Positions 1-13,539 of a DNA stretch of 29,908 bases are shown piece after piece. Both the position numbers and the translations under genes were made by a program. This DNA is from Escherichia coli (GTDB lineage Bacteria; Pseudomonadota; Gammaproteobacteria; Enterobacterales; Enterobacteriaceae), in NCBI RefSeq assembly GCF_003334315.1, contig NZ_QOWR01000056.1, one strand, 5' to 3'. Within the stretch, counting starts at the first letter, position 1, and the number at the start of each line of letters is the position of its first letter. The notes under the pieces were generated by a model. It did no database searches and was not told where the DNA came from. It saw nothing but the letters and a program-made list of their open reading frames with translations.

Positions 1-149
1 GGTTGAGAAGCGGTGTAAGTGAACTGCAGTTGCCATGTTTTACGGCAGTGAGAGCAGAGATAGCGCTGATGTCCGGCGGTGCTTTTGCCGTTACGCACCA
101 CCCCGTCAGTAGCTGAACAGGAGGGACAGCTGATAGAAACAGAAGCCAC
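1..149 (-). CDS. insA: IS1 InsA N-terminal part (partial, runs off the window)
   Basis: GTG start at 147..149 on the minus strand; translation [49 protein letters not shown] matches the InsA N-terminus (zinc-finger CxxC...CxxC) from recall. Confidence 0.7.
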
Positions 150-204
150 TGGAGCACCTCAAAAACACCATCATACACTAAATCAGTAAGTTGGCATCAT
201 CACC
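1..204 (-). mobile_element. IS1 insertion sequence, left end (IRL plus start of insA), partial; continues beyond the window start
   Basis: Reverse complement of 1..204 matches the IS1 left end from recall (GGTGATG[A/C]TGCCAACTTACTGATTTAGTGTATGATGGTGTTTTTGAGGTGCTCCAGTGGCTTCT...), with one mismatch in the terminal inverted repeat. The bcsE reading frame changes character exactly at position 204/205. Confidence 0.85.
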
Positions 205-711
205 AAAAAGTGAACGGTATTCCTCAAGCAACAATGAAAATTGTTTATCGTTATTATTTCCGGGATTAATTACCAAAAGCGAACAATGGTTTAACCTGCT
301 CCATTTATTCATTTTATCCAACCATGAGCGAAGCCGCTCGGCAGGAATGTTTTGCCATGCGTTATTTGCGCAAACAAGAATAAAAAGGTAATTATGGGGA
401 TCAATAGAACACTGCAAATCACGGGTCAAATAGTATAGACCTTTTTCATGATTTAGCATTGAAAATAATTTTATTTTTTCCGGCCCTTGAGAATCATCTA
501 ATTGAAAGATTTTCGCCGGATCGCTGTCCATGCTAATGACCGCGACGTGTGCGGTTTCAGCCTGGGATGCAATTGTTTGATTCGCCAGACTGATAGCATC
601 TTCATGGCGATCGACGTTAAACCACCAGACGCCGCCTGCTGGCATATGTCGCAGCTCATCCCATAATGATGAGATACCGATAGAGAATACAGGGTCCACA
701 ATGTCCCTCAT
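205..711 (-). pseudogene. bcsE: bcsE 5' fragment (codons 1-169 of a ~523-codon gene) truncated by the IS1 insertion
   Basis: ATG at 709..711 on the minus strand; translation MRDIVDPVFSIGISSLWDELRHMPAGGVWWFNVDRHEDAISL...EEYRSLF matches the BcsE N-terminus. The six-frame ORF 178..711 continues 8 codons into IS1 (GDDANLLI) and then stops. Confidence 0.8.
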
Positions 712-983
712 GTCACCATTTTGTCTGATTATCAGTTTACTAGCGAAAGCTAAGAAATAAACCTACCATTGAAATTAAAACTTATCAGATTTAGCATGTG
801 AATCAATTTAGAAGGTCACAAGACGTGTGATTTTAGTCTTTTCGTTTTTAACTTTTTCTGTTGCGTAACGGAAAGTCAAAAAGTGAGCAAATTCCCGTCT
901 CGCCGTAAACAATAAACCGGCGAAATGCTCACGGTTAGAATTGTCTCATGAACGGTACAGTTATTTCATAGGGATCAAGCAAA

Positions 984-1172
984 ATGAATAACAATGAACC
1001 AGATACTCTGCCTGATCCCGCGATAGGCTATATCTTCCAGAATGATATTGTGGCGTTAAAGCAGGCATTTTCACTGCCTGATATTGATTATGCCGATATT
1101 TCCCAACGCGAACAGTTGGCCGCGGCATTAAAACGCTGGCCGTTGCTGGCAGAGTTTGCGCAACAAAAGTAG
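984..1172 (+). CDS. bcsR: Cellulose biosynthesis protein BcsR (YhjR), 62 aa
   Basis: ORF 984..1172, translation MNNNEPDTLPDPAIGYIFQNDIVALKQAFSLPDIDYADISQREQLAAALKRWPLLAEFAQQK; sits immediately upstream of bcsQ, divergent from bcsE. Confidence 0.85.
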   Translation: MNNNEPDTLPDPAIGYIFQNDIVALKQAFSLPDIDYADISQREQLAAALKRWPLLAEFAQQK

Positions 1173-1183
1173 GGGATTGGTGA

Positions 1184-1936
1184 ATGGCCGTACTGGGATT
1201 GCAGGGGGTGCGGGGAGGCGTGGGGACAACAACCATCACCGCCGCATTAGCCTGGTCATTACAAATGTTGGGAGAAAATGTTCTGGTGGTCGATGCCTGC
1301 CCGGACAACTTGTTGCGCCTGTCATTTAATGTTGATTTTACCCACCGTCAGGGCTGGGCCAGAGCGATGCTGGATGGCCAGGACTGGCGTGACGCTGGGT
1401 TGCGCTACACCTCGCAGCTCGATTTGCTGCCTTTTGGTCAGTTATCCATTGAAGAACAAGAAAATCCACAGCACTGGCAAACCCGGCTGAGCGATATTTG
1501 CTCCGGCTTACAGCAACTAAAAGCCAGCGGGCGTTACCAGTGGATTTTAATCGACTTACCGCGTGATGCCTCGCAGATAACCCACCAGCTGCTGAGTTTG
1601 TGCGATCACTCGCTGGCAATCGTCAATGTGGATGCCAACTGCCATATCCGACTGCATCAGCAAGCGCTGCCGGATGGCGCACATATTTTGATTAATGACT
1701 TCCGTATTGGCAGTCAGGTTCAGGACGATATTTACCAGCTTTGGTTGCAAAGCCAGCGCCGATTGCTGCCGATGCTCATTCATCGTGATGAAGCGATGGC
1801 TGAATGCCTGGCGGCTAAGCAACCAGTCGGTGAATACCGCAGTGATGCGCTGGCGGCTGAAGAGATACTGACGCTGGCGAACTGGTGCCTGTTGAACTAC
1901 TCCGGGCTGAAAACGCCAGTCGGGAGTGCATCATGA
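1184..1936 (+). CDS. bcsQ: Cellulose synthase operon protein BcsQ, ParA/MinD-family ATPase, 250 aa, intact
   Basis: ORF 1184..1936; deviant Walker A GVRGGVGTTT near the N-terminus. Codon 6 is TTG (Leu), not the TAG reported for K-12. Stop overlaps the bcsA start (ATGA). Confidence 0.9.
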   Translation: MAVLGLQGVRGGVGTTTITAALAWSLQMLGENVLVVDACPDNLLRLSFNVDFTHRQGWARAMLDGQDWRDAGLRYTSQLDLLPFGQLSIEEQENPQHWQTRLSDICSGLQQLKASGRYQWILIDLPRDASQITHQLLSLCDHSLAIVNVDANCHIRLHQQALPDGAHILINDFRIGSQVQDDIYQLWLQSQRRLLPMLIHRDEAMAECLAAKQPVGEYRSDALAAEEILTLANWCLLNYSGLKTPVGSAS

Positions 1937-4551
1937 GTATCCTGACCCGGTGGTTGCTTATCCCGCCGGTCAACGCGCGGCTTATCGGGCGTTATCGCGA
2001 TTATCGTCGTCACGGTGCGTCGGCTTTCAGCGCGACGCTCGGCTGTTTCTGGATGATCCTGGCCTGGATTTTTATTCCGCTGGAGCACCCGCGCTGGCAG
2101 CGTATTCGCGCAGAACATAAAAACCTGTATCCGCATATCAACGCCTCGCGTCCGCGTCCGCTGGACCCGGTCCGTTATCTCATTCAAACATGCTGGTTAT
2201 TGATCGGTGCATCGCGCAAAGAAACGCCGAAACCGCGCAGGCGGGCATTTTCAGGTCTGCAAAATATTCGTGGACGTTACCATCAATGGATGAACGAGCT
2301 GCCTGAGCGCGTTAGCCATAAAACACAGCATCTTGATGAGAAAAAAGAGCTCGGTCATTTGAGTGCCGGGGCGCGGCGGTTGATCCTCGGTATCATCGTC
2401 ACCTTCTCGCTGATTCTGGCGTTAATCTGCGTTACTCAACCGTTTAACCCGCTGGCGCAGTTTATCTTCCTGATGCTGCTGTGGGGTGTAGCGCTGATCG
2501 TACGGCGGATGCCGGGGCGCTTCTCGGCGCTAATGTTGATTGTGCTGTCGCTGACCGTTTCTTGCCGTTATATCTGGTGGCGTTACACCTCTACGCTGAA
2601 CTGGGACGATCCGGTCAGCCTGGTGTGCGGGCTTATTCTGCTCTTCGCTGAAACGTACGCGTGGATTGTGCTGGTGCTCGGCTACTTCCAGGTAGTATGG
2701 CCGCTGAATCGTCAGCCGGTGCCATTGCCGAAAGATATGTCGCTGTGGCCGTCGGTGGATATCTTTGTCCCGACTTACAACGAAGATCTCAACGTGGTGA
2801 AAAATACTATTTACGCCTCGCTGGGTATCGACTGGCCGAAAGACAAGCTGAACATCTGGATCCTCGATGACGGCGGTAGGGAAGAGTTTCGCCAGTTTGC
2901 GCAAAACGTGGGGGTGAAATATATCGCCCGTACCACTCATGAACATGCGAAAGCGGGCAACATCAACAATGCGCTGAAATATGCCAAAGGCGAGTTCGTG
3001 TCGATTTTCGACTGCGACCACGTACCAACGCGATCGTTCCTGCAAATGACCATGGGCTGGTTCCTGAAAGAGAAACAGCTGGCGATGATGCAGACTCCAC
3101 ACCACTTCTTCTCGCCGGACCCGTTTGAACGCAACCTGGGGCGTTTTCGTAAAACACCGAACGAAGGCACGCTGTTCTATGGTCTGGTGCAGGATGGCAA
3201 CGATATGTGGGACGCCACTTTCTTCTGCGGTTCCTGTGCGGTGATTCGTCGTAAGCCGCTGGATGAAATTGGCGGCATTGCTGTCGAAACCGTGACTGAA
3301 GATGCGCATACTTCTCTGCGTTTGCACCGTCGTGGCTATACCTCCGCGTATATGCGTATTCCGCAGGCGGCGGGGCTGGCGACCGAAAGTCTGTCGGCGC
3401 ATATCGGTCAGCGTATTCGCTGGGCGCGCGGGATGGTACAAATCTTTCGTCTCGATAACCCGCTCACCGGTAAAGGACTGAAGTTTGCTCAGCGGCTGTG
3501 CTACGTCAACGCCATGTTCCACTTCTTGTCGGGCATTCCACGGCTGATCTTCCTGACTGCGCCGCTGGCGTTCCTGCTGCTTCATGCCTACATCATCTAT
3601 GCGCCAGCGTTGATGATCGCCCTATTCGTGCTGCCGCATATGATCCATGCCAGCCTGACCAACTCCAAGATCCAGGGCAAATATCGCCACTCTTTCTGGA
3701 GTGAAATCTACGAAACGGTGCTGGCGTGGTATATCGCACCACCGACGCTGGTGGCGCTGATTAACCCGCACAAAGGCAAATTTAACGTCACCGCCAAAGG
3801 TGGACTGGTGGAAGAAGAGTACGTCGACTGGGTGATCTCGCGGCCCTACATCTTCCTTGTCCTGCTCAACCTGGTGGGCGTTGCGGTAGGCATCTGGCGC
3901 TACTTCTATGGCCCGCCAACCGAGATGCTCACCGTGGTCGTCAGTATGGTGTGGGTGTTCTACAACCTGATTGTTCTTGGCGGCGCAGTTGCGGTATCGG
4001 TAGAAAGCAAACAGGTACGCCGATCGCACCGCGTGGAGATGACGATGCCCGCGGCAATTGCCCGCGAAGATGGTCACCTCTTCTCGTGTACCGTTCAGGA
4101 TTTCTCCGACGGTGGTTTGGGGATCAAGATCAACGGTCAGGCGCAGATTCTGGAAGGGCAGAAAGTGAATCTGTTGCTTAAACGCGGTCAGCAGGAATAC
4201 GTCTTCCCGACCCAGGTGGCGCGCGTGATGGGTAATGAAGTTGGGCTGAAATTAATGCCGCTCACCACCCAGCAACATATCGATTTTGTGCAGTGTACGT
4301 TTGCCCGTGCGGATACATGGGCGCTCTGGCAGGACAGCTACCCGGAAGATAAGCCGCTGGAAAGTCTGCTGGATATTCTGAAGCTCGGCTTCCGTGGCTA
4401 CCGCCATCTGGCGGAGTTTGCGCCTTCTTCGGTGAAGGGCATATTCCGTGTGCTGACTTCTCTGGTTTCCTGGGTTGTATCGTTTATTCCGCGCCGCCCG
4501 GAGCGGAGCGAAACGGCACAACCATCGGATCAGGCTTTGGCTCAACAATGA
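1933..4551 (+). CDS. bcsA: Cellulose synthase catalytic subunit BcsA (GT2 glycosyltransferase with C-terminal PilZ domain), 872 aa
   Basis: ATG at 1933 (MSILTRWLL...) inside the longer six-frame ORF 1885..4551. GT2 motifs visible (DDG, DCD, TED, QRIRW) and PilZ c-di-GMP motifs RRSHR and DFSDGG. Length matches the K-12 protein from recall. Confidence 0.95.
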   Translation: MSILTRWLLIPPVNARLIGRYRDYRRHGASAFSATLGCFWMILAWIFIPLEHPRWQRIRAEHKNLYPHINASRPRPLDPVRYLIQTCWLLIGASRKETPKPRRRAFSGLQNIRGRYHQWMNELPERVSHKTQHLDEKKELGHLSAGARRLILGIIVTFSLILALICVTQPFNPLAQFIFLMLLWGVALIVRRMPGRFSALMLIVLSLTVSCRYIWWRYTSTLNWDDPVSLVCGLILLFAETYAWIVLVLGYFQVVWPLNRQPVPLPKDMSLWPSVDIFVPTYNEDLNVVKNTIYASLGIDWPKDKLNIWILDDGGREEFRQFAQNVGVKYIARTTHEHAKAGNINNALKYAKGEFVSIFDCDHVPTRSFLQMTMGWFLKEKQLAMMQTPHHFFSPDPFERNLGRFRKTPNEGTLFYGLVQDGNDMWDATFFCGSCAVIRRKPLDEIGGIAVETVTEDAHTSLRLHRRGYTSAYMRIPQAAGLATESLSAHIGQRIRWARGMVQIFRLDNPLTGKGLKFAQRLCYVNAMFHFLSGIPRLIFLTAPLAFLLLHAYIIYAPALMIALFVLPHMIHASLTNSKIQGKYRHSFWSEIYETVLAWYIAPPTLVALINPHKGKFNVTAKGGLVEEEYVDWVISRPYIFLVLLNLVGVAVGIWRYFYGPPTEMLTVVVSMVWVFYNLIVLGGAVAVSVESKQVRRSHRVEMTMPAAIAREDGHLFSCTVQDFSDGGLGIKINGQAQILEGQKVNLLLKRGQQEYVFPTQVARVMGNEVGLKLMPLTTQQHIDFVQCTFARADTWALWQDSYPEDKPLESLLDILKLGFRGYRHLAEFAPSSVKGIFRVLTSLVSWVVSFIPRRPERSETAQPSDQALAQQ

Positions 4552-4561
4552 TGATAACGCG

Positions 4562-6901
4562 ATGAAAAGAAAACTATTCTGGATTTGTGCAGTGGCTATG
4601 GGGATGAGTGCGTTCCCCTCTTTCATGACGCAGGCGACGCCAGCAACGCAACCACTGATCAATGCTGAGCCAGCTGTAGCCGCCCAGACGGAACAAAATC
4701 CGCAGGTGGGGCAAGTGATGCCGGGCGTGCAGGGCGCTGATGCGCCAGTCGTGGCGCAGAACGGTCCTTCGCGTGATGTGAAGCTGACCTTTGCGCAAAT
4801 TGCACCGCCGCCGGGCAGCATGGTGCTACGTGGCATTAACCCGAACGGCAGCATTGAGTTTGGTATGCGCAGCGATGAAGTGGTGACGAAGGCGATGCTC
4901 AACCTCGAATACACCCCATCGCCATCGTTACTGCCTGTCCAGTCGCAGTTAAAGGTTTATCTCAATGATGAACTGATGGGCGTGCTGCCAGTGACCAAAG
5001 AACAGTTGGGTAAAAAAACGCTGGCGCAAATGCCCATTAACCCACTGTTTATTACCGACTTCAACCGTGTACGGCTGGAGTTTGTCGGCCATTATCAGGA
5101 CGTGTGCGAAAACCCGGCCAGCACCACGCTTTGGCTGGATGTTGGGCGGAGCAGTGGACTGGATCTGACCTATCAGACCCTGAATGTGAAGAATGACCTG
5201 TCACACTTCCCGGTGCCATTCTTTGACCCGCGCGATAACCGTACTAACACCTTGCCGATGGTCTTTGCGGGTGCGCCGGATGTTGGGCTGCAACAAGCCT
5301 CTGCCATTGTCGCCTCGTGGTTTGGTTCGCGTTCTGGCTGGCGTGGGCAGAACTTCCCGGTGCTCTATAACCAACTGCCGGATCGTAATGCCATTGTCTT
5401 TGCAACCAACGACAAACGGCCGGACTTCCTGCGCGATCATCCGGCGGTAAAAGCCCCGGTGATTGAGATGATTAACCATCCGCAGAATCCTTACGTCAAA
5501 CTGCTGGTGGTGTTTGGTCGTGACGACAAAGACCTGTTGCAGGCAGCGAAAGGTATCGCTCAGGGTAACATTCTGTTCCGTGGTGAAAGCGTGGTAGTGA
5601 ATGAAGTGAAACCGCTGCTACCGCGTAAGCCGTACGATGCGCCGAACTGGGTACGTACCGATCGTCCGGTCACATTTGGCGAACTGAAAACCTATGAAGA
5701 ACAGTTACAATCCAGCGGTCTTGAGCCAGCAGCGATTAACGTTTCGCTAAACCTGCCGCCGGATCTCTACCTGATGCGCAGTACCGGCATTGATATGGAT
5801 ATTAATTACCGCTACACCATGCCGCCGGTGAAAGACAGTTCGCGGATGGATATCAGCCTGAATAACCAGTTCCTGCAATCCTTCAACCTGAGCAGCAAAC
5901 AGGAGGCGAACCGCCTGCTGCTGCGGATTCCGGTATTACAAGGTTTGCTGGATGGCAAAACAGATGTCTCTATTCCGGCGCTGAAACTGGGCGCGACCAA
6001 CCAGCTGCGCTTCGACTTTGAGTATATGAACCCGATGCCGGGCGGTTCGGTGGATAACTGTATTACCTTCCAGCCGGTGCAGAATCATGTGGTGATTGGT
6101 GACGACTCCACCATCGACTTCTCGAAGTATTACCACTTCATCCCGATGCCGGATCTACGCGCCTTTGCTAACGCGGGCTTCCCATTCAGCCGGATGGCGG
6201 ATCTGTCGCAAACCATCACCGTGATGCCGAAAGCGCCTAACGAAGCACAGATGGAAACGTTGCTGAATACTGTTGGTTTTATCGGCGCACAGACGGGCTT
6301 CCCGGCGATTAATCTGACGGTGACCGATGATGGCAGCACCATTCAGGGCAAAGATGCCGACATCATGATCATCGGTGGTATCCCGGACAAACTGAAAGAC
6401 GATAAGCAGATCGACCTATTGGTGCAGGCGACCGAAAGCTGGGTGAAAACACCGATGCGCCAGACCCCGTTCCCCGGCATTGTGCCGGACGAGAGCGATC
6501 GCGCGGCAGAAACCCGGTCAACGCTGACCTCTTCCGGTGCGATGGCGGCGGTGATTGGCTTCCAGTCGCCGTATAACGACCAGCGCAGCGTGATTGCGCT
6601 GTTGGCAGATAGCCCACGCGGTTATGAAATGCTTAACGATGCGGTGAACGATAGCGGCAAACGCGCCACCATGTTCGGTTCGGTCGCGGTGATCCGCGAG
6701 TCCGGTATCAACAGCCTACGTGTTGGCGACGTTTATTACGTAGGTCATCTGCCGTGGTTCGAGCGCGTGTGGTATGCGCTGGCAAACCATCCGATTCTGC
6801 TGGCGGTGCTGGCGGCTATCAGTGTGATATTGCTGGCATGGGTACTGTGGCGTCTGCTGCGAATTATTAGTCGTCGTCGTCTTAACCCGGATAACGAGTA
6901 A
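4562..6901 (+). CDS. bcsB: Cellulose synthase periplasmic subunit BcsB, 779 aa
   Basis: ATG at 4562 (MKRKLFWICAVAMGMSAFPSFMTQA..., signal-peptide-like) inside six-frame ORF 4475..6901; C-terminal hydrophobic anchor; 10 bp after the bcsA stop. Confidence 0.95.
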   Translation: MKRKLFWICAVAMGMSAFPSFMTQATPATQPLINAEPAVAAQTEQNPQVGQVMPGVQGADAPVVAQNGPSRDVKLTFAQIAPPPGSMVLRGINPNGSIEFGMRSDEVVTKAMLNLEYTPSPSLLPVQSQLKVYLNDELMGVLPVTKEQLGKKTLAQMPINPLFITDFNRVRLEFVGHYQDVCENPASTTLWLDVGRSSGLDLTYQTLNVKNDLSHFPVPFFDPRDNRTNTLPMVFAGAPDVGLQQASAIVASWFGSRSGWRGQNFPVLYNQLPDRNAIVFATNDKRPDFLRDHPAVKAPVIEMINHPQNPYVKLLVVFGRDDKDLLQAAKGIAQGNILFRGESVVVNEVKPLLPRKPYDAPNWVRTDRPVTFGELKTYEEQLQSSGLEPAAINVSLNLPPDLYLMRSTGIDMDINYRYTMPPVKDSSRMDISLNNQFLQSFNLSSKQEANRLLLRIPVLQGLLDGKTDVSIPALKLGATNQLRFDFEYMNPMPGGSVDNCITFQPVQNHVVIGDDSTIDFSKYYHFIPMPDLRAFANAGFPFSRMADLSQTITVMPKAPNEAQMETLLNTVGFIGAQTGFPAINLTVTDDGSTIQGKDADIMIIGGIPDKLKDDKQIDLLVQATESWVKTPMRQTPFPGIVPDESDRAAETRSTLTSSGAMAAVIGFQSPYNDQRSVIALLADSPRGYEMLNDAVNDSGKRATMFGSVAVIRESGINSLRVGDVYYVGHLPWFERVWYALANHPILLAVLAAISVILLAWVLWRLLRIISRRRLNPDNE

Positions 6902-6907
6902 TTGAAG

Positions 6908-8014
6908 ATGAATGTGTTGCGTAGTGGAATCGTGACGATGCTGCTGCTGGCTGCCTTTAGTGTTCAGGCAGCCTGTACCTGGCCTGCCTGGGAGCAGTTT
7001 AAAAAGGATTACATCAGTCAGGAAGGGCGCGTCATCGACCCCAGCGACGCGCGCAAAATCACCACCTCCGAAGGGCAAAGTTACGGTATGTTCTTTGCCC
7101 TGGCGGCTAACGACCGTGCAGCTTTCGATAATATTCTCGACTGGACGCAGAACAATCTCGCTCAGGGTTCTTTAAAAGAAGGTTTGCCCGCCTGGCTGTG
7201 GGGTAAGAAAGAGAACAGTAAGTGGGAAGTGCTGGACAGCAATTCGGCCTCCGATGGTGATGTCTGGATGGCCTGGTCATTGCTGGAGGCGGGGCGTTTG
7301 TGGAAAGAGCAGCGTTATACCGACATCGGCAGCGCGTTGCTAAAACGTATCGCGCGGGAGGAAGTGGTGACGGTGCCTGGGCTGGGTTCCATGTTGTTAC
7401 CGGGCAAAGTGGGTTTTGCTGAGGATAACAGCTGGCGTTTTAACCCCAGCTACCTGCCGCCGACGCTGGCGCAGTATTTCACCCGCTTTGGCGCGCCGTG
7501 GACTACGCTGCGCGAAACCAATCAACGTTTATTGCTGGAAACCGCCCCGAAAGGCTTTTCGCCAGACTGGGTGCGCTATGAGAAAGACAAAGGCTGGCAG
7601 CTAAAAGCCGAAAAAACATTGATCAGCAGCTACGACGCTATCCGCGTTTACATGTGGGTAGGCATGATGCCTGACAGCGATCCGCAAAAAGCGCGGATGC
7701 TCAACCGGTTTAAACCGATGGCGACATTCACTGAGAAAAACGGTTATCCGCCGGAAAAAGTGGATGTGGCTACGGGGAAAGCGCAGGGTAAAGGACCGGT
7801 CGGTTTTTCTGCCGCCATGCTGCCTTTTTTACAAAACCGCGATGCGCAGGCCGTTCAGCGCCAGCGCGTGGCCGATAACTTTCCCGGCAGCGATGCCTAT
7901 TACAACTATGTGCTGACCCTGTTTGGACAAGGCTGGGATCAACACCGTTTCCGCTTCTCGACAAAAGGTGAGTTATTACCTGACTGGGGCCAGGAATGCG
8001 TAAATTCACACTAA
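6908..8014 (+). CDS. bcsZ: Endo-1,4-beta-glucanase BcsZ (GH8 family), 368 aa
   Basis: ATG at 6908 ([21 protein letters not shown], signal peptide); the track ORF starts 2 codons earlier at a TTG. Length matches K-12 BcsZ from recall. Confidence 0.9.
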
Positions 8015-11000
8015 ACATATTCACACTTTCCCTCGGTCTGGCCGTCATGCCGATGGTCGAGGCAGCACCAACCGCTCAGCAACAGTTGCTGGAGCAAGTT
8101 CGGTTAGGTGAAGCGACCCATCGTGAAGATCTGGTGCAACAGTCGTTATATCGGCTGGAACTTATTGATCCGAATAACCCGGACGTCGTTGCCGCCCGTT
8201 TCCGTTCTTTGTTACGTCAGGGCGATATTGATGGCGCGCAAAAACAGCTCGATCGGCTGTCTCAGTTAGCGCCGAGTTCAAATGCGTATAAATCGTCGCG
8301 GACTACGATGCTACTTTCCACGCCGGATGGTCGTCAGGCACTGCAACAGGCAAGATTGCAGGCGACTACCGGTCATGCGGAAGAAGCTGTGGCGAGTTAC
8401 AACAAACTGTTCAACGGTGCGCCGCCGGAAGGTGACATTGCTGTCGAGTACTGGAGTACGGTGGCGAAAATTCCGGCTCGCCGTGGCGAAGCGATCAATC
8501 AGTTAAAACGCATCAATGCGGATGCACCGGGCAACACGGGCCTGCAAAACAATCTGGCGCTATTGCTGTTTAGTAGCGATCGGCGTGACGAAGGCTTTGC
8601 CGTTCTGGAACAAATGGCGAAATCGAACGCCGGACGCGAGGGGGCCTCTAAAATCTGGTACGGGCAGATTAAAGACATGCCCGTCAGCGATGCCAGTGTG
8701 TCGGCGCTGAAAAAATATCTTTCGATCTTTAGCGATGGCGATAGCGTGGCGGCTGCACAATCGCAACTGGCAGAACAGCAAAAACAGCTGGCCGACCCTG
8801 CTTTCCGCGCTCGTGCGCAAGGTTTAGCGGCGGTGGACTCTGGTATGGCGGGTAAAGCCATTCCCGAACTACAACAGGCAGTGCGGGCGAACCCGAAAGA
8901 CAGTGAGGCTCTGGGGGCGCTGGGCCAGGCATATTCACAGAAAGGCGATCGCGCCAATGCAGTGGCGAATCTGGAAAAAGCCCTCGCACTGGACCCGCAC
9001 AGCAGCAACAACGACAAATGGAACAGTCTGCTGAAAGTAAACCGCTACTGGCTGGCGATCCAGCAGGGCGATGCTGCGCTGAAAGCCAATAATCCTGACC
9101 GGGCAGAACGCCTGTTCCAGCAGGCGCGTAATGTCGATAACACCGACAGTTATGCAGTGCTGGGGCTGGGCGATGTGGCGATGGCGCGCAAAGATTACCC
9201 CGCCGCTGAACGCTATTATCAGCAGACCCTGCGGATGGACAGCGGCAACACTAACGCCGTGCGCGGGCTGGCGAATATTTATCGCCAGCAGTCGCCAGAA
9301 AAAGCTGAAGCGTTTATCGCCTCGCTCTCTGCCAGCCAGCGGCGCAGCATTGATGATATCGAACGCAGCCTGCAAAACGACCGTCTGGCACAGCAGGCAG
9401 AGGCACTGGAAAACCAGGGCAAATGGGCGCAGGCGGCAGCACTTCAGCGGCAACGACTGGCGCTGGACCCCGGCAGCGTATGGATTACTTACCGACTTTC
9501 GCAGGATCTCTGGCAGGCCGGACAACGCAGCCAGGCTGATACGTTAATGCGCAATCTGGCGCAGCAGAAGCCGAATGACCCGGAGCAGGTTTACGCTTAC
9601 GGGCTGTATCTCTCTGGTCATGACCAGGACAGAGCGGCGCTGGCGCATATCAACAGCCTGCCGCGCGCGCAGTGGAACAACAATATTCAGGAGCTGGTTA
9701 ATCGCCTGCAAAGCGATCAGGTGCTGGAAACCGCTAATCGCCTGCGAGAAAGCGGCAAAGAAGCTGAAGCGGAAGCGATGCTGCGCCAGCAACCGCCCTC
9801 CACGCGTATTGACCTCACGCTGGCTGACTGGGCGCAGCAGCGACGTGATTACACCGCCGCCCGCGCTGCATATCAGAATGTCCTGACGCGGGAGCCAACT
9901 AACGCCGATGCCATTCTGGGGCTGACGGAAGTGGATATTGCTGCCGGTGACACAGCGGCAGCACGTAGCCAGCTGGCGAAACTGCCCGCTACCGATAACG
10001 CCTCGCTGAACACACAGCGGCGCGTGGCGCTGGCACAGGCACAGCTTGGAGATACCGCAGCGGCGCAGCAGACGTTTAATAAGTTGATCCCGCAGGCAAA
10101 ATCTCAGCCACCGTCGATGGAAAGCGCGATGGTGCTGCGCGACGGTGCGAAGTTTGAAGCGCAGGCGGGCGATCCAAAGCAGGCGCTGGAAACCTACAAA
10201 GACGCTATGGTCGCATCCGGTGTGACTACGACGCGTCCGCAGGATAACGACACCTTTACCCGACTGACCCGTAACGACGAGAAAGATGACTGGCTGAAAC
10301 GCGGCGTGCGCAGCGATGCGGCGGACCTCTATCGCCAGCAGGATCTTAACGTCACCCTTGAGCATGATTATTGGGGATCGAGCGGCACCGGTGGTTACTC
10401 CGATCTGAAAGCGCACACCACTATGTTGCAGGTGGACGCGCCGTATTCTGACGGGCGGATGTTCTTTCGCAGTGATTTCGTCAATATGAACGTCGGCAGT
10501 TTCTCCACGAATGCCGATGGCAAATGGGATGACAACTGGGGCACCTGTACATTACAGGACTGTAGCGGCAACCGCAGCCAGTCGGATTCCGGTGCCAGCG
10601 TGGCGGTCGGCTGGCGAAATGACGTCTGGAGCTGGGATATCGGCACCACGCCGATGGGCTTCAACGTGGTGGATGTGGTCGGCGGCATCAGTTACAGCGA
10701 TGATATCGGGCCGCTGGGTTACACCGTTAACGCCCACCGTCGGCCCATCTCCAGTTCTTTGCTGGCCTTTGGTGGGCAAAAAGACTCCCCGAGTAATACC
10801 GGGAAAAAATGGGGCGGTGTGCGTGCGGACGGCGTGGGGCTAAGCCTGAGCTACGATAAAGGTGAAGCAAACGGCGTCTGGGCATCGCTTAGTGGCGACC
10901 AGTTAACCGGTAAAAATGTCGAAGATAACTGGCGCGTGCGCTGGATGACGGGCTATTACTATAAGGTCATTAACCAGAACAATCGCCGCGTCACAATCGG

Positions 11001-11469
11001 CCTGAACAACATGATCTGGCATTACGACAAAGATCTGAGTGACTACTCACTCGGTCAGGGCGGTTACTACAGTCCGCAGGAATACCTGTCGTTTGCCATA
11101 CCGGTGATGTGGCGGGAGCGCACGGAAAACTGGTCGTGGGAGCTGGGTGCGTCTGGCTCGTGGTCGCATTCACGCACCAAAACCATGCCGCGTTATCCGC
11201 TGATGAATCTGATCCCGACCGACTGGCAGGAAGAAGCTGCGCGGCAATCCAACGATGGCGGCAGCAGTCAGGGCTTCGGCTACACGGCGCGGGCATTACT
11301 TGAACGACGTGTTACTTCCAACTGGTTTGTTGGCACGGCAATTGATATCCAGCAGGCGAAAGATTACGCACCCAGCCATTTCCTGCTCTACGTACGTTAT
11401 TCCGCCGCCGGATGGCAGGGTGACATGGATTTACCGCCGCAGCCGCTGATACCTTACGCCGACTGGTAA
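7996..11469 (+). CDS. bcsC: Cellulose synthase outer-membrane/TPR subunit BcsC, 1157 aa
   Basis: ORF 7996..11469 with AGGA Shine-Dalgarno; signal peptide, Ala/Leu/Gln-rich TPR-like N-terminal two thirds and a Gly/Ser/Trp/Tyr-rich beta-barrel-like C-terminus; overlaps the bcsZ 3' end by 19 nt. Confidence 0.9.
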
Positions 11470-11550: not shown

Positions 11551-13539
11551 TTGCGCGTAAGTCGCTCGTTAACAATCAAGCAGATGGCAATGGTGGCAGC
11601 CGTTGTCCTGGTGTTCGTTTTTATTTTTTGCACCGTTTTGCTGTTCCATCTGGTCCAGCAGAATCGCTATAACACGGCTACGCAACTGGAAAGCATTGCT
11701 CGCTCTGTCCGCGAACCCTTATCTTCAGCTATTTTGAAAGGCGATATTCCCGAAGCGGAAGCTATTCTTGCCAGCATTAAACCGGCAGGCGTGGTCAGCC
11801 GTGCCGATGTAGTGCTGCCTAACCAGTTCCAGGCGCTGCGTAAAAGTTTTATTCCAGAGCGCCCGGTGCCGGTAATGGTTACTCGCCTGTTTGAGCTACC
11901 GGTTCAAATCTCGCTGGGCGTTTACTCGCTCGAACGTCCGGCAAACCCGCAGCCAATTGCCTATCTGGTACTACAGGCGGATTCCTTCCGTATGTATAAG
12001 TTCGTGATGAGCACCCTCTCAACGTTAGTGACCATTTACTTACTTTTGTCGCTTATCCTGACCGTCGCCATCAGCTGGTGCATTAACCGCCTGATTTTGC
12101 ATCCGTTACGCAATATTGCTCGCGAACTTAACGCCATCCCAGCCAAGGAGCTTGTTGGTCACCAACTGGCATTACCGCGTCTGCATCAGGACGATGAAAT
12201 CGGTATGTTGGTGCGCAGTTACAACCTCAACCAGCAATTGCTGCAGCGCCATTATGAAGAACAGAACGAAAATGCGATGCGCTTCCCGGTGTCGGATTTG
12301 CCGAACAAAGCCTTGCTGATGGAGATGCTGGAGCAGGTTGTCGCGCGTAAACAAACCACCGCGCTGATGATCATCACCTGTGAAACCCTGCGTGATACTG
12401 CGGGCGTGCTGAAAGAGGCGCAACGAGAAATTCTGCTGCTGACGCTGGTGGAAAAACTCAAATCGGTACTGTCGCCACGTATGATCCTCGCGCAGATTAG
12501 CGGTTATGACTTTGCTGTCATTGCCAACGGTGTACAGGAACCGTGGCACGCAATCACCTTAGGTCAGCAAGTGCTCACTATCATGAGCGAGCGCCTGCCG
12601 ATTGAACGTATTCAACTCCGTCCGCACTGTAGCATTGGCGTGGCGATGTTCTACGGCGATCTCACCGCCGAACAGCTTTACAGTCGCGCTATTTCTGCGG
12701 CATTTACCGCTCGCCATAAAGGCAAGAATCAGATTCAGTTCTTTGATCCGCAGCAGATGGAAGCCGCCCAGAAGCGGTTGACGGAAGAGAGCGATATCCT
12801 TAATGCACTGGAAAATCATCAGTTTGCTATTTGGTTACAGCCACAGGTCGAGATGACCAGCGGAAAACTGGTCAGTGCGGAAGTGTTACTGCGTATCCAG
12901 CAACCGGATGGCAGTTGGGACCTGCCGGATGGCTTAATCGATCGCATTGAGTGCTGTGGGCTGATGGTTACCGTCGGTCACTGGGTGCTGGAAGAGTCCT
13001 GTCGATTGCTTGCAGCCTGGCAAGAGCGCGGCATTATGCTGCCCTTGTCGGTAAACCTCTCTGCGCTGCAACTGATGCACCCAAATATGGTGGCGGATAT
13101 GCTGGAACTGTTAACCCGCTATCGCATTCAGCCGGGAACACTGATTCTGGAAGTGACAGAAAGCCGACGTATTGACGACCCTCATGCTGCGGTGGCAATC
13201 CTCCGTCCGCTGCGCAATGCCGGAGTTCGGGTGGCGCTGGATGATTTCGGCATGGGCTACGCAGGGCTGCGTCAGCTGCAGCATATGAAATCGTTGCCAA
13301 TCGACGTACTGAAAATCGACAAAATGTTTGTTGAAGGCTTGCCGGGAGATAGCAGCATGATTGCTGCAATTATCATGCTGGCGCAGAGCCTGAACTTACA
13401 AATGATTGCCGAAGGCGTGGAGACTGAAGCACAACGCGACTGGCTGGCAAAAGCGGGCGTTGGTATTGCCCAGGGCTTCCTTTTTGCTCGCCCACTCCCT
13501 ATTGAAATCTTCGAAGAGAGTTACCTGGAAGAAAAGTAG
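11551..13539 (+). CDS. pdeK: c-di-GMP phosphodiesterase PdeK (YhjK): transmembrane/HAMP, degenerate GGDEF and EAL domains
   Basis: ORF 11551..13539 from a TTG start preceded by GGGGGGAGA; an alternative ATG lies at 11584. Degenerate GGDEF-position motif SGYDF and EAL-position motif EVL visible in the translation. Confidence 0.8.

Follow-up and report, generated by a model that had tools for sequence, protein, structure and literature searches.

BcsQ is described in the literature as a MinD/ParA-like (SIMIBI) ATPase that, together with BcsR, is essential to the assembly and function of the BcsAB cellulose synthase complex. In K-12 derivatives the bcsQ gene carries a 17T>A lesion that replaces TTG with TAG, and a polar effect has been proposed for this amber codon (PMC5944007). 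Repair of TAG to TTG in strain W3110 resulted in the cellulose-proficient strain AR3110, as related in PMC7397504 and PMC5944007, both of which cite Serra et al. 2013. The BcsQ protein of E. coli 1094 was studied in PMC5727187, PMC7439463 and PMC7840130, and the substitution G14S is known to inactivate BcsQ (PMC5727187). BcsR, BcsQ and BcsG are essential, BcsG for secretion in strain 1094 (PMC5727187), and BcsE is needed only for maximal cellulose production (PMC5727187, PMC5944007). BcsE has two parts, an N-terminal domain (residues 1-217) and a REC*-GGDEF* module (residues 217-523); the latter binds BcsQ and, at the I-site R415xxD, c-di-GMP (PMC7439463, PMC5727187). When either residues 1-217 or residues 217-523 are deleted, the cytosolic subunits are not efficiently incorporated in the Bcs macrocomplex (PMC7439463). 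Strain ATCC 8739, which has a nonsense mutation in bcsE and an intact bcsRQAB, showed no detectable calcofluor signal, a result that its authors blamed on polarity on bcsFG (PMC5944007). Loss-of-function mutations in bcsRQABZC-bcsEFG were found in 74 of 76 common STs (PMC10881479).

The window, that is, the whole stretch of 29,908 nucleotides of E. coli DNA analyzed here, includes the bcsQ gene with the following features.

1184-1936, plus strand: bcsQ, 250 codons, intact; a SIMIBI/MinD-like ATPase gene
1199-1201, plus strand: codon 6 of bcsQ, TTG (Leu); amber (TAG) in K-12, the difference being at window base 1200

The sequence at positions 1184-1204 was read as ATG GCC GTA CTG GGA TTG CAG, and translation of 1184-1936 produced a 250-amino acid BcsQ without internal stops that ends at a TGA at 1934-1936. 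The MG1655 gene (b3534), annotated as a pseudogene, reads ATGGCCGTACTGGGATAGCAG in a base-by-base comparison. The preliminary description, which had reported a TTG in the window and an amber codon at the same place in K-12, was thus accurate on both counts. The two genes differ, with no gaps, at five positions, nucleotides 17, 99, 582, 645 and 654. Nucleotide 17 is the sole coding difference (A, as part of TAG, in K-12 and T, as part of TTG, in the window; *6L), the other four being synonymous, and the BcsQ encoded in the window is residue-for-residue the repaired K-12 protein of AR3110. Its assignment as BcsQ follows from the model scores, the open frame, the P-loop and the gene context. It spans residues 1-250 of the 250 of NCBIfam NF007460 with 542.9 bits (cutoff 399) and scores 297.7 bits against TIGR03371 (cutoff 157.85). 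The P-loop GVRGGVGTTT occupies residues 8-17, includes Gly14, and is identical in the crystallized BcsQ of 6YBU. The bcsR gene lies immediately 5′ and bcsA immediately 3′, where the bcsQ stop and the bcsA start overlap in the ATGA at 1933-1936, an arrangement that agrees with the polar effect suggested for the amber codon of K-12. An exact-sequence look-up found the same protein, under the UniRef name BCSQ_ECOLI, on at least 1000 contigs. Nucleotide binding, interaction with BcsR and BcsE, and a role in cellulose secretion would be expected of this protein from its identity to that of AR3110 and its 99% identity to that of strain 1094.

The distribution of both forms of codon 6 was determined with a 61-mer query, window positions 1170-1230, centered on the polymorphic base, in 5,426 complete RefSeq E. 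coli genomes. The TTG form had an exact match in 3,552 of the 5,426 genomes and the K-12 TAG form in 349. The four genomes with the TAG form shown in a spread sample, ER1709, AML003_ev02, 11202 and MG-phbCAB-3-5, have laboratory-style names. Leu-6 is, then, the common state and the species wild type in E. coli. The genome of NT1N31 has the K-12 haplotype through bcsQ-bcsA, yet it carries TTG at codon 6. The K-12 haplotype thus also occurs with TTG in nature, which marks the 17T>A amber change as a point mutation private to K-12. An intact codon 6 is the species norm and, as such, an unremarkable feature whose use is as a marker of "not K-12".

The rest of the cellulose synthase operon was compared with MG1655, from which the bcs gene boundaries were taken.

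984-1172, plus strand: bcsR (yhjR), 62 amino acids, intact; no nucleotide differences from MG1655; NF040717, 75.2 bits (cutoff 46)
1933-4551, plus strand: bcsA, 872 amino acids, intact; 22 synonymous SNPs and no amino acid differences from MG1655; NF008558, residues 1-872 of 872, 1794 bits
4562-6901, plus strand: bcsB, 779 amino acids, intact; 7 SNPs and 3 amino acid differences (S165T, K184N, S224R) from MG1655; NF008325, 1386 bits (cutoff 922)
6908-8014, plus strand: bcsZ, 368 amino acids, intact; 10 SNPs and 3 amino acid differences (S63F, R92G, A365V) from MG1655; NF008305, 593 bits
7996-11469, plus strand: bcsC, 1157 amino acids, intact; 82 SNPs and 7 amino acid differences from MG1655; NF008520, residues 1-1157 of 1157, 2200 bits (cutoff 858)
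11551-13539, plus strand: pdeK (yhjK/hmsP), a c-di-GMP phosphodiesterase gene adjoining the operon, intact; 2 synonymous SNPs relative to MG1655

End-to-end alignment with MG1655, which had no gap bases, revealed no indels or internal stops in bcsR, bcsA, bcsB, bcsZ or bcsC. All six bcsRQABZC products span the full NCBIfam equivalog profiles with scores far over the curated cutoffs. The earlier claim that the operon is uninterrupted was borne out, and a downstream lesion in bcsA, bcsB or bcsC, which would have contradicted it, did not appear in the alignment. The exact proteins are each found on 588 to at least 1000 contigs (at least 1000 for BcsB and BcsZ, 588 for BcsC), and BcsB, BcsZ and BcsC of the window are common natural alleles. 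BcsQ, BcsR and BcsA are presumably functional since they equal the proteins of AR3110. The gene that adjoins the operon is annotated hmsP/pdeK in strain cM2a and in MG1655.

The relation of the source strain to K-12 was apparent from the whole window. Positions 202-29908, which run from bcsE to ccp, are colinear with MG1655; the 29,707 aligned bases include 131 mismatches and are free of gaps. Of these SNPs, 125 fall within positions 1200-11042 (bcsQ-bcsC, about 1.3%), 82 of them in bcsC, and the other ~19.9 kb have only 6, at positions 959, 12864, 13083, 16170, 21259 and 25064. Against a backbone that otherwise resembles K-12, the cluster in bcsQ-bcsC stands out as a mosaic tract of the recombination type. 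The bcs tract is also mosaic among strains; NT1N31 is K-12-like in bcsQ-bcsA and window-like in bcsB. Many natural isolates, recovered from humans, pigs, poultry/chickens, frogs and seawater, share ~100% identity with positions 205-25000. The genome of cM2a, in which bcsE is intact, differs from the window at 2 sites over 24.8 kb. A K-12 lineage would be recognized by TAG at codon 6 and by near-identity to MG1655 across the locus, from which K-12 derivatives depart only by isolated mutations, and the window has neither. The source, as judged from these sequence comparisons, is very closely related to K-12, of phylogroup-A type, with a mosaic bcs tract, and belongs to no distant lineage. As a separate observation, an additional IS1 lies between rcdB (yhjC) and yhjB in cM2a (L005, 30091-30788), at ~25240 in window terms; it is absent from both the window and MG1655 and is another sign of active IS1 in the lineage.

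Taken together, these data indicate, with a probability that we place at about 0.93, that the bcsQ gene in the window is an ordinary wild-type allele, that the bcsRQABZC operon around it is intact, and that the strain is a natural E. coli of phylogroup-A type, close to K-12 but not derived from it. Other explanations were weighed against this reading. The TTG could be a sequencing or assembly error that hides a true TAG, but only the general chance of a single-base mistake speaks for it; the exact 61-mer occurs in thousands of independent complete genomes, 3,552 in all, and the haplotype that surrounds codon 6 is not that of K-12, so that the probability of an error at this codon, the refuting possibility named in the preliminary description, is practically nil. 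The source could also be a K-12 derivative in which codon 6 had been repaired, by engineering as in AR3110 or by spontaneous reversion. The scarcity of differences from MG1655 outside bcsQ-bcsC (6 in ~19.9 kb) and the BcsQ, BcsR and BcsA proteins, which are those of repaired K-12, would agree with such an origin. However, repair of a single base would account for none of the other SNPs, and the window has 4 further synonymous SNPs in bcsQ, 121 more through bcsA-bcsC and the 6 elsewhere in 20 kb. Furthermore, the whole haplotype is common to wild isolates (humans, pigs, chickens, seawater), with 2 mismatches in 24.8 kb. A K-12 hybrid or a repaired strain was rejected as the origin on this SNP pattern, and any residual probability of a repaired K-12 is very small indeed. 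This agrees with the earlier statement that the source is not a K-12 derivative.

The operon could, on the other hand, be intact by open reading frame length and still be dead through missense changes in BcsB, BcsZ or BcsC. There are 13 amino acid differences from K-12 across the three proteins (3, 3 and 7, respectively), and missense SNPs have been speculated to lie behind the cellulose-negative strains BL21 and H10407 (PMC5944007). Nonetheless, the exact proteins are widespread, they score far beyond the equivalog cutoffs across the full profiles, the haplotype is common to many isolates from diverse hosts, and BcsA, BcsQ and BcsR do not differ from the functional AR3110 proteins. A silent death of the operon is thus quite improbable, and an ordinary, genetically intact bcsRQABZC is the reading adopted here.

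The locus has a single visible lesion, upstream of the operon and on the other strand, where the window starts inside an IS1 element that interrupts bcsE.

1-204, minus strand: left end of IS1; the terminal inverted repeat ends at 204 and the first 49 insA codons run from a GTG at 149; the window starts inside the element and leaves out its other end and the target duplication
205-711, minus strand: 5′ fragment of bcsE, codons 1-169 of 523, identical to nucleotides 1-510 of MG1655 bcsE; start at 711
712-983, no strand: divergent bcsE/bcsR intergenic (promoter) region, equal in length to that of MG1655; a single SNP, at 959

Positions 1-204 share 99.5% identity (203/204) with IS1 copies elsewhere that are annotated as IS1A family transposase. 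A terminal inverted repeat is followed by the insA frame, as in IS1, and positions 3-149 of the minus strand translate to the 49 residues of the InsA N-terminus. The match of bcsE to MG1655 ends after nucleotide ~507-510, where IS1 begins, so that the IS1 in bcsE that had been noted from the sequence is real. The resulting open reading frame, 178-711 on the minus strand, consists of BcsE residues 1-169, 8 IS1-derived codons and a stop. This product matches positions 1-169 of the 523 of the NF011619 profile with 355.8 bits, under the cutoff of 929, and is without the whole C-terminal module (217-523) and part of the N-terminal domain. The locus therefore has the six intact bcsRQABZC genes of a type II Bcs system and is without the intact bcsE (523 amino acids, with the REC*-GGDEF* module) that such a system also includes. 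The insA gene is on the bcsE strand; in other words, IS1 is co-oriented with bcsE. If a 9-bp (or 8-bp) direct repeat, (C)AAAAAGTG, and bcsE nucleotides ~502-1572, bcsF and bcsG are present beyond the window start, the event would be a simple insertion. At window position 197 the IS1 inverted repeat reads GGTGATGATGCC where the usual form is GGTGATGCTGCC (T for G, plus strand), and this variant end was not seen among the IS1 copies compared.

The SNP in the intergenic region, at position 959, is an A in the window and a G in MG1655, 25 nucleotides upstream of the bcsR ATG in the leader/promoter region of this gene. NT1N31 and S1-CAM-01-A have the K-12 base, and no difference from the window was seen in cM2a. 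Consensus scans of positions 600-2100 for promoters and terminators gave results not clearly over those of shuffled sequences (2 vs. 1.6; 4 vs. 1.8), and an Rfam scan of the whole window had no matches at the gathering thresholds. An open reading frame of 115 amino acids at 961-1308 of the minus strand, which overlaps bcsR and bcsQ, was discarded as spurious.

Interruption of bcsE by IS1 was found in at least 13 of the 5,426 complete genomes, at sites after bcsE nucleotides ~510, ~531 and ~621 that lie within ~110 bp. In the relatives inspected the transposase is always on the bcsE strand, and bcsF and bcsG are kept intact. Set beside window positions 197-205 were 5300-5345 and 6085-6125 of L003 (NT1N31), along with L007 and L008. 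Those with IS1 at a nearly identical bcsE site have a simple insertion, with a 9-bp duplication, CAAAAAGTG, read in NT1N31. A 200-base query that spans the exact IS1/bcsE junction of the window had no copies in the 5,426 genomes. The nearest junction is that of the NT1N31 group, from which the window differs in being 1 bp shorter and in one base in the IS1 inverted repeat; the two junctions represent either independent insertions or one common insertion in which a C run later changed by 1 bp. Similarity matches of "100%" to window positions 1-2400 were considered as instances of the same junction and dismissed, as they are joins of three pieces. In one of them, 2013C-4991 (L001, 4511-5559), IS1 sits in the bcsE-bcsR intergenic region, within the divergent promoter region, and both bcsE and bcsQ are intact. 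Four human isolates with genomes of ~5.40 Mb have the same three-piece match over the same span as 2013C-4991, as seen by similarity search only.

Several of the genomes with IS1 in bcsE have a second bcs lesion. In NT1N31 (L003, 7081-7833) bcsQ has the nonsense change Q159*, equivalent to window nucleotide 1658; in Ecol_AZ147 (L007, 3692-4443) bcsQ has a frameshift; and in S1-CAM-01-A (L004, 7830-9685) bcsA is truncated beside phage-like genes. These second lesions are consistent with decay of the pathway after the loss of one component. The recurrence of co-oriented IS1 in bcsE, along with the IS1 in the intergenic region of 2013C-4991, might reflect a target hotspot, or convergent selection that switches off the BcsE/BcsFG arm with the core synthase operon kept, but we consider this interpretation unlikely. 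If it were correct, it would mean an IS-mediated, potentially reversible tuning of the amount of cellulose or of its pEtN modification, which surveys of draft assemblies based on open reading frames could miss.

The preliminary description also proposed that the route by which the cellulose pathway is impaired is not that of K-12. The candidate route is the truncation of BcsE at residue 169. The impairment itself is reasonable to expect, because of this truncation and because IS1 insertions are classically strongly polar on downstream genes. [quoted passage not shown] By analogy, a clearly reduced or negative calcofluor/Congo red phenotype is probable. The window starts inside IS1, and any 3′ part of bcsE, bcsF and bcsG would lie outside it; csgD, dgcC and rpoS, regulators needed for cellulose, are outside it as well. 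A less probable outcome, although one to be taken seriously, is that substantial cellulose is made despite the insertion, with BcsE acting merely as a booster and transcription from or through IS1 keeping bcsF and bcsG expressed, in which case the pathway would be tuned, not impaired. The location of insA on the bcsE strand makes read-through into bcsF/bcsG possible, and the inspected relatives have IS1 in this orientation with bcsF and bcsG intact. Against it stand the well-established polarity of IS1 and the second bcs lesions of several related genomes, which suggest that the pathway was already dispensable there. Published experiments point both ways, since BcsE serves maximal production and is not essential (PMC5727187, PMC5944007), but ATCC 8739, with its bcsE nonsense mutation, is calcofluor-negative (PMC5944007) and deletion of either part of BcsE blocks efficient incorporation of the cytosolic subunits (PMC7439463). 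Reduced or absent cellulose is the outcome that we favor.

The significance of these findings is low, as an intact bcsQ is the E. coli default and the amber codon of K-12 is well documented as a peculiarity of a laboratory lineage. Their practical value is in annotation and strain typing; the window comes from a natural K-12-like (phylogroup-A-type) strain and not from a K-12 derivative. The core operon for cellulose synthesis in this strain is genetically competent, and any cellulose defect should be sought in the IS1 insertion in bcsE and its possible polarity on bcsF/bcsG. Just one by-product is of some mild interest, namely that IS1 insertions recur in a ~110-bp stretch of bcsE, in the orientation of the gene.

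The locus resembles the described systems in different ways. It is like K-12 b3534 and AR3110 in the gene, its position in bcsRQABZC and its length, with BcsQ, BcsR and BcsA proteins identical to those of AR3110, and differs from them in the native TTG, the 4 synonymous changes in bcsQ and the 121 SNPs through bcsC, which make it a natural allele. In comparison with the BcsRQ of E. coli 1094 (PDB 6YBU/6YAR), a cellulose-positive commensal, 248 of the 250 BcsQ residues are identical, the differences relative to the 1094 protein being N171D and K249A; the P-loop, including G14, and the operon architecture are the same, but the bcsEFG region of the window, unlike that of 1094, is disrupted by IS1. 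The likeness to ATCC 8739 (PMC5944007) extends to phylogroup A, an intact bcsQ, an early truncation of BcsE and a suspected polarity on bcsF/bcsG. The lesions are nonetheless distinct, a point nonsense mutation in bcsE (303T>A, codon 101) in ATCC 8739 and an IS1 after codon 169 in the window. With respect to the survey in PMC10881479, the window adds a further lineage in which the bcs locus has a lesion and most of its genes are intact. That survey extracted open reading frames and looked for loss of function inside them, and its main text contains neither the term "insertion sequence" nor "IS1", whereas the lesion in the window is an IS1 insertion. All of this maps onto biology that is already known, namely the amber mutation of K-12 and its repaired form, the 1094 type II Bcs system, the bcsE mutation of ATCC 8739 and the frequency of bcs lesions. 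The locus is in keeping with published work in which E. coli lineages have often acquired such lesions independently.
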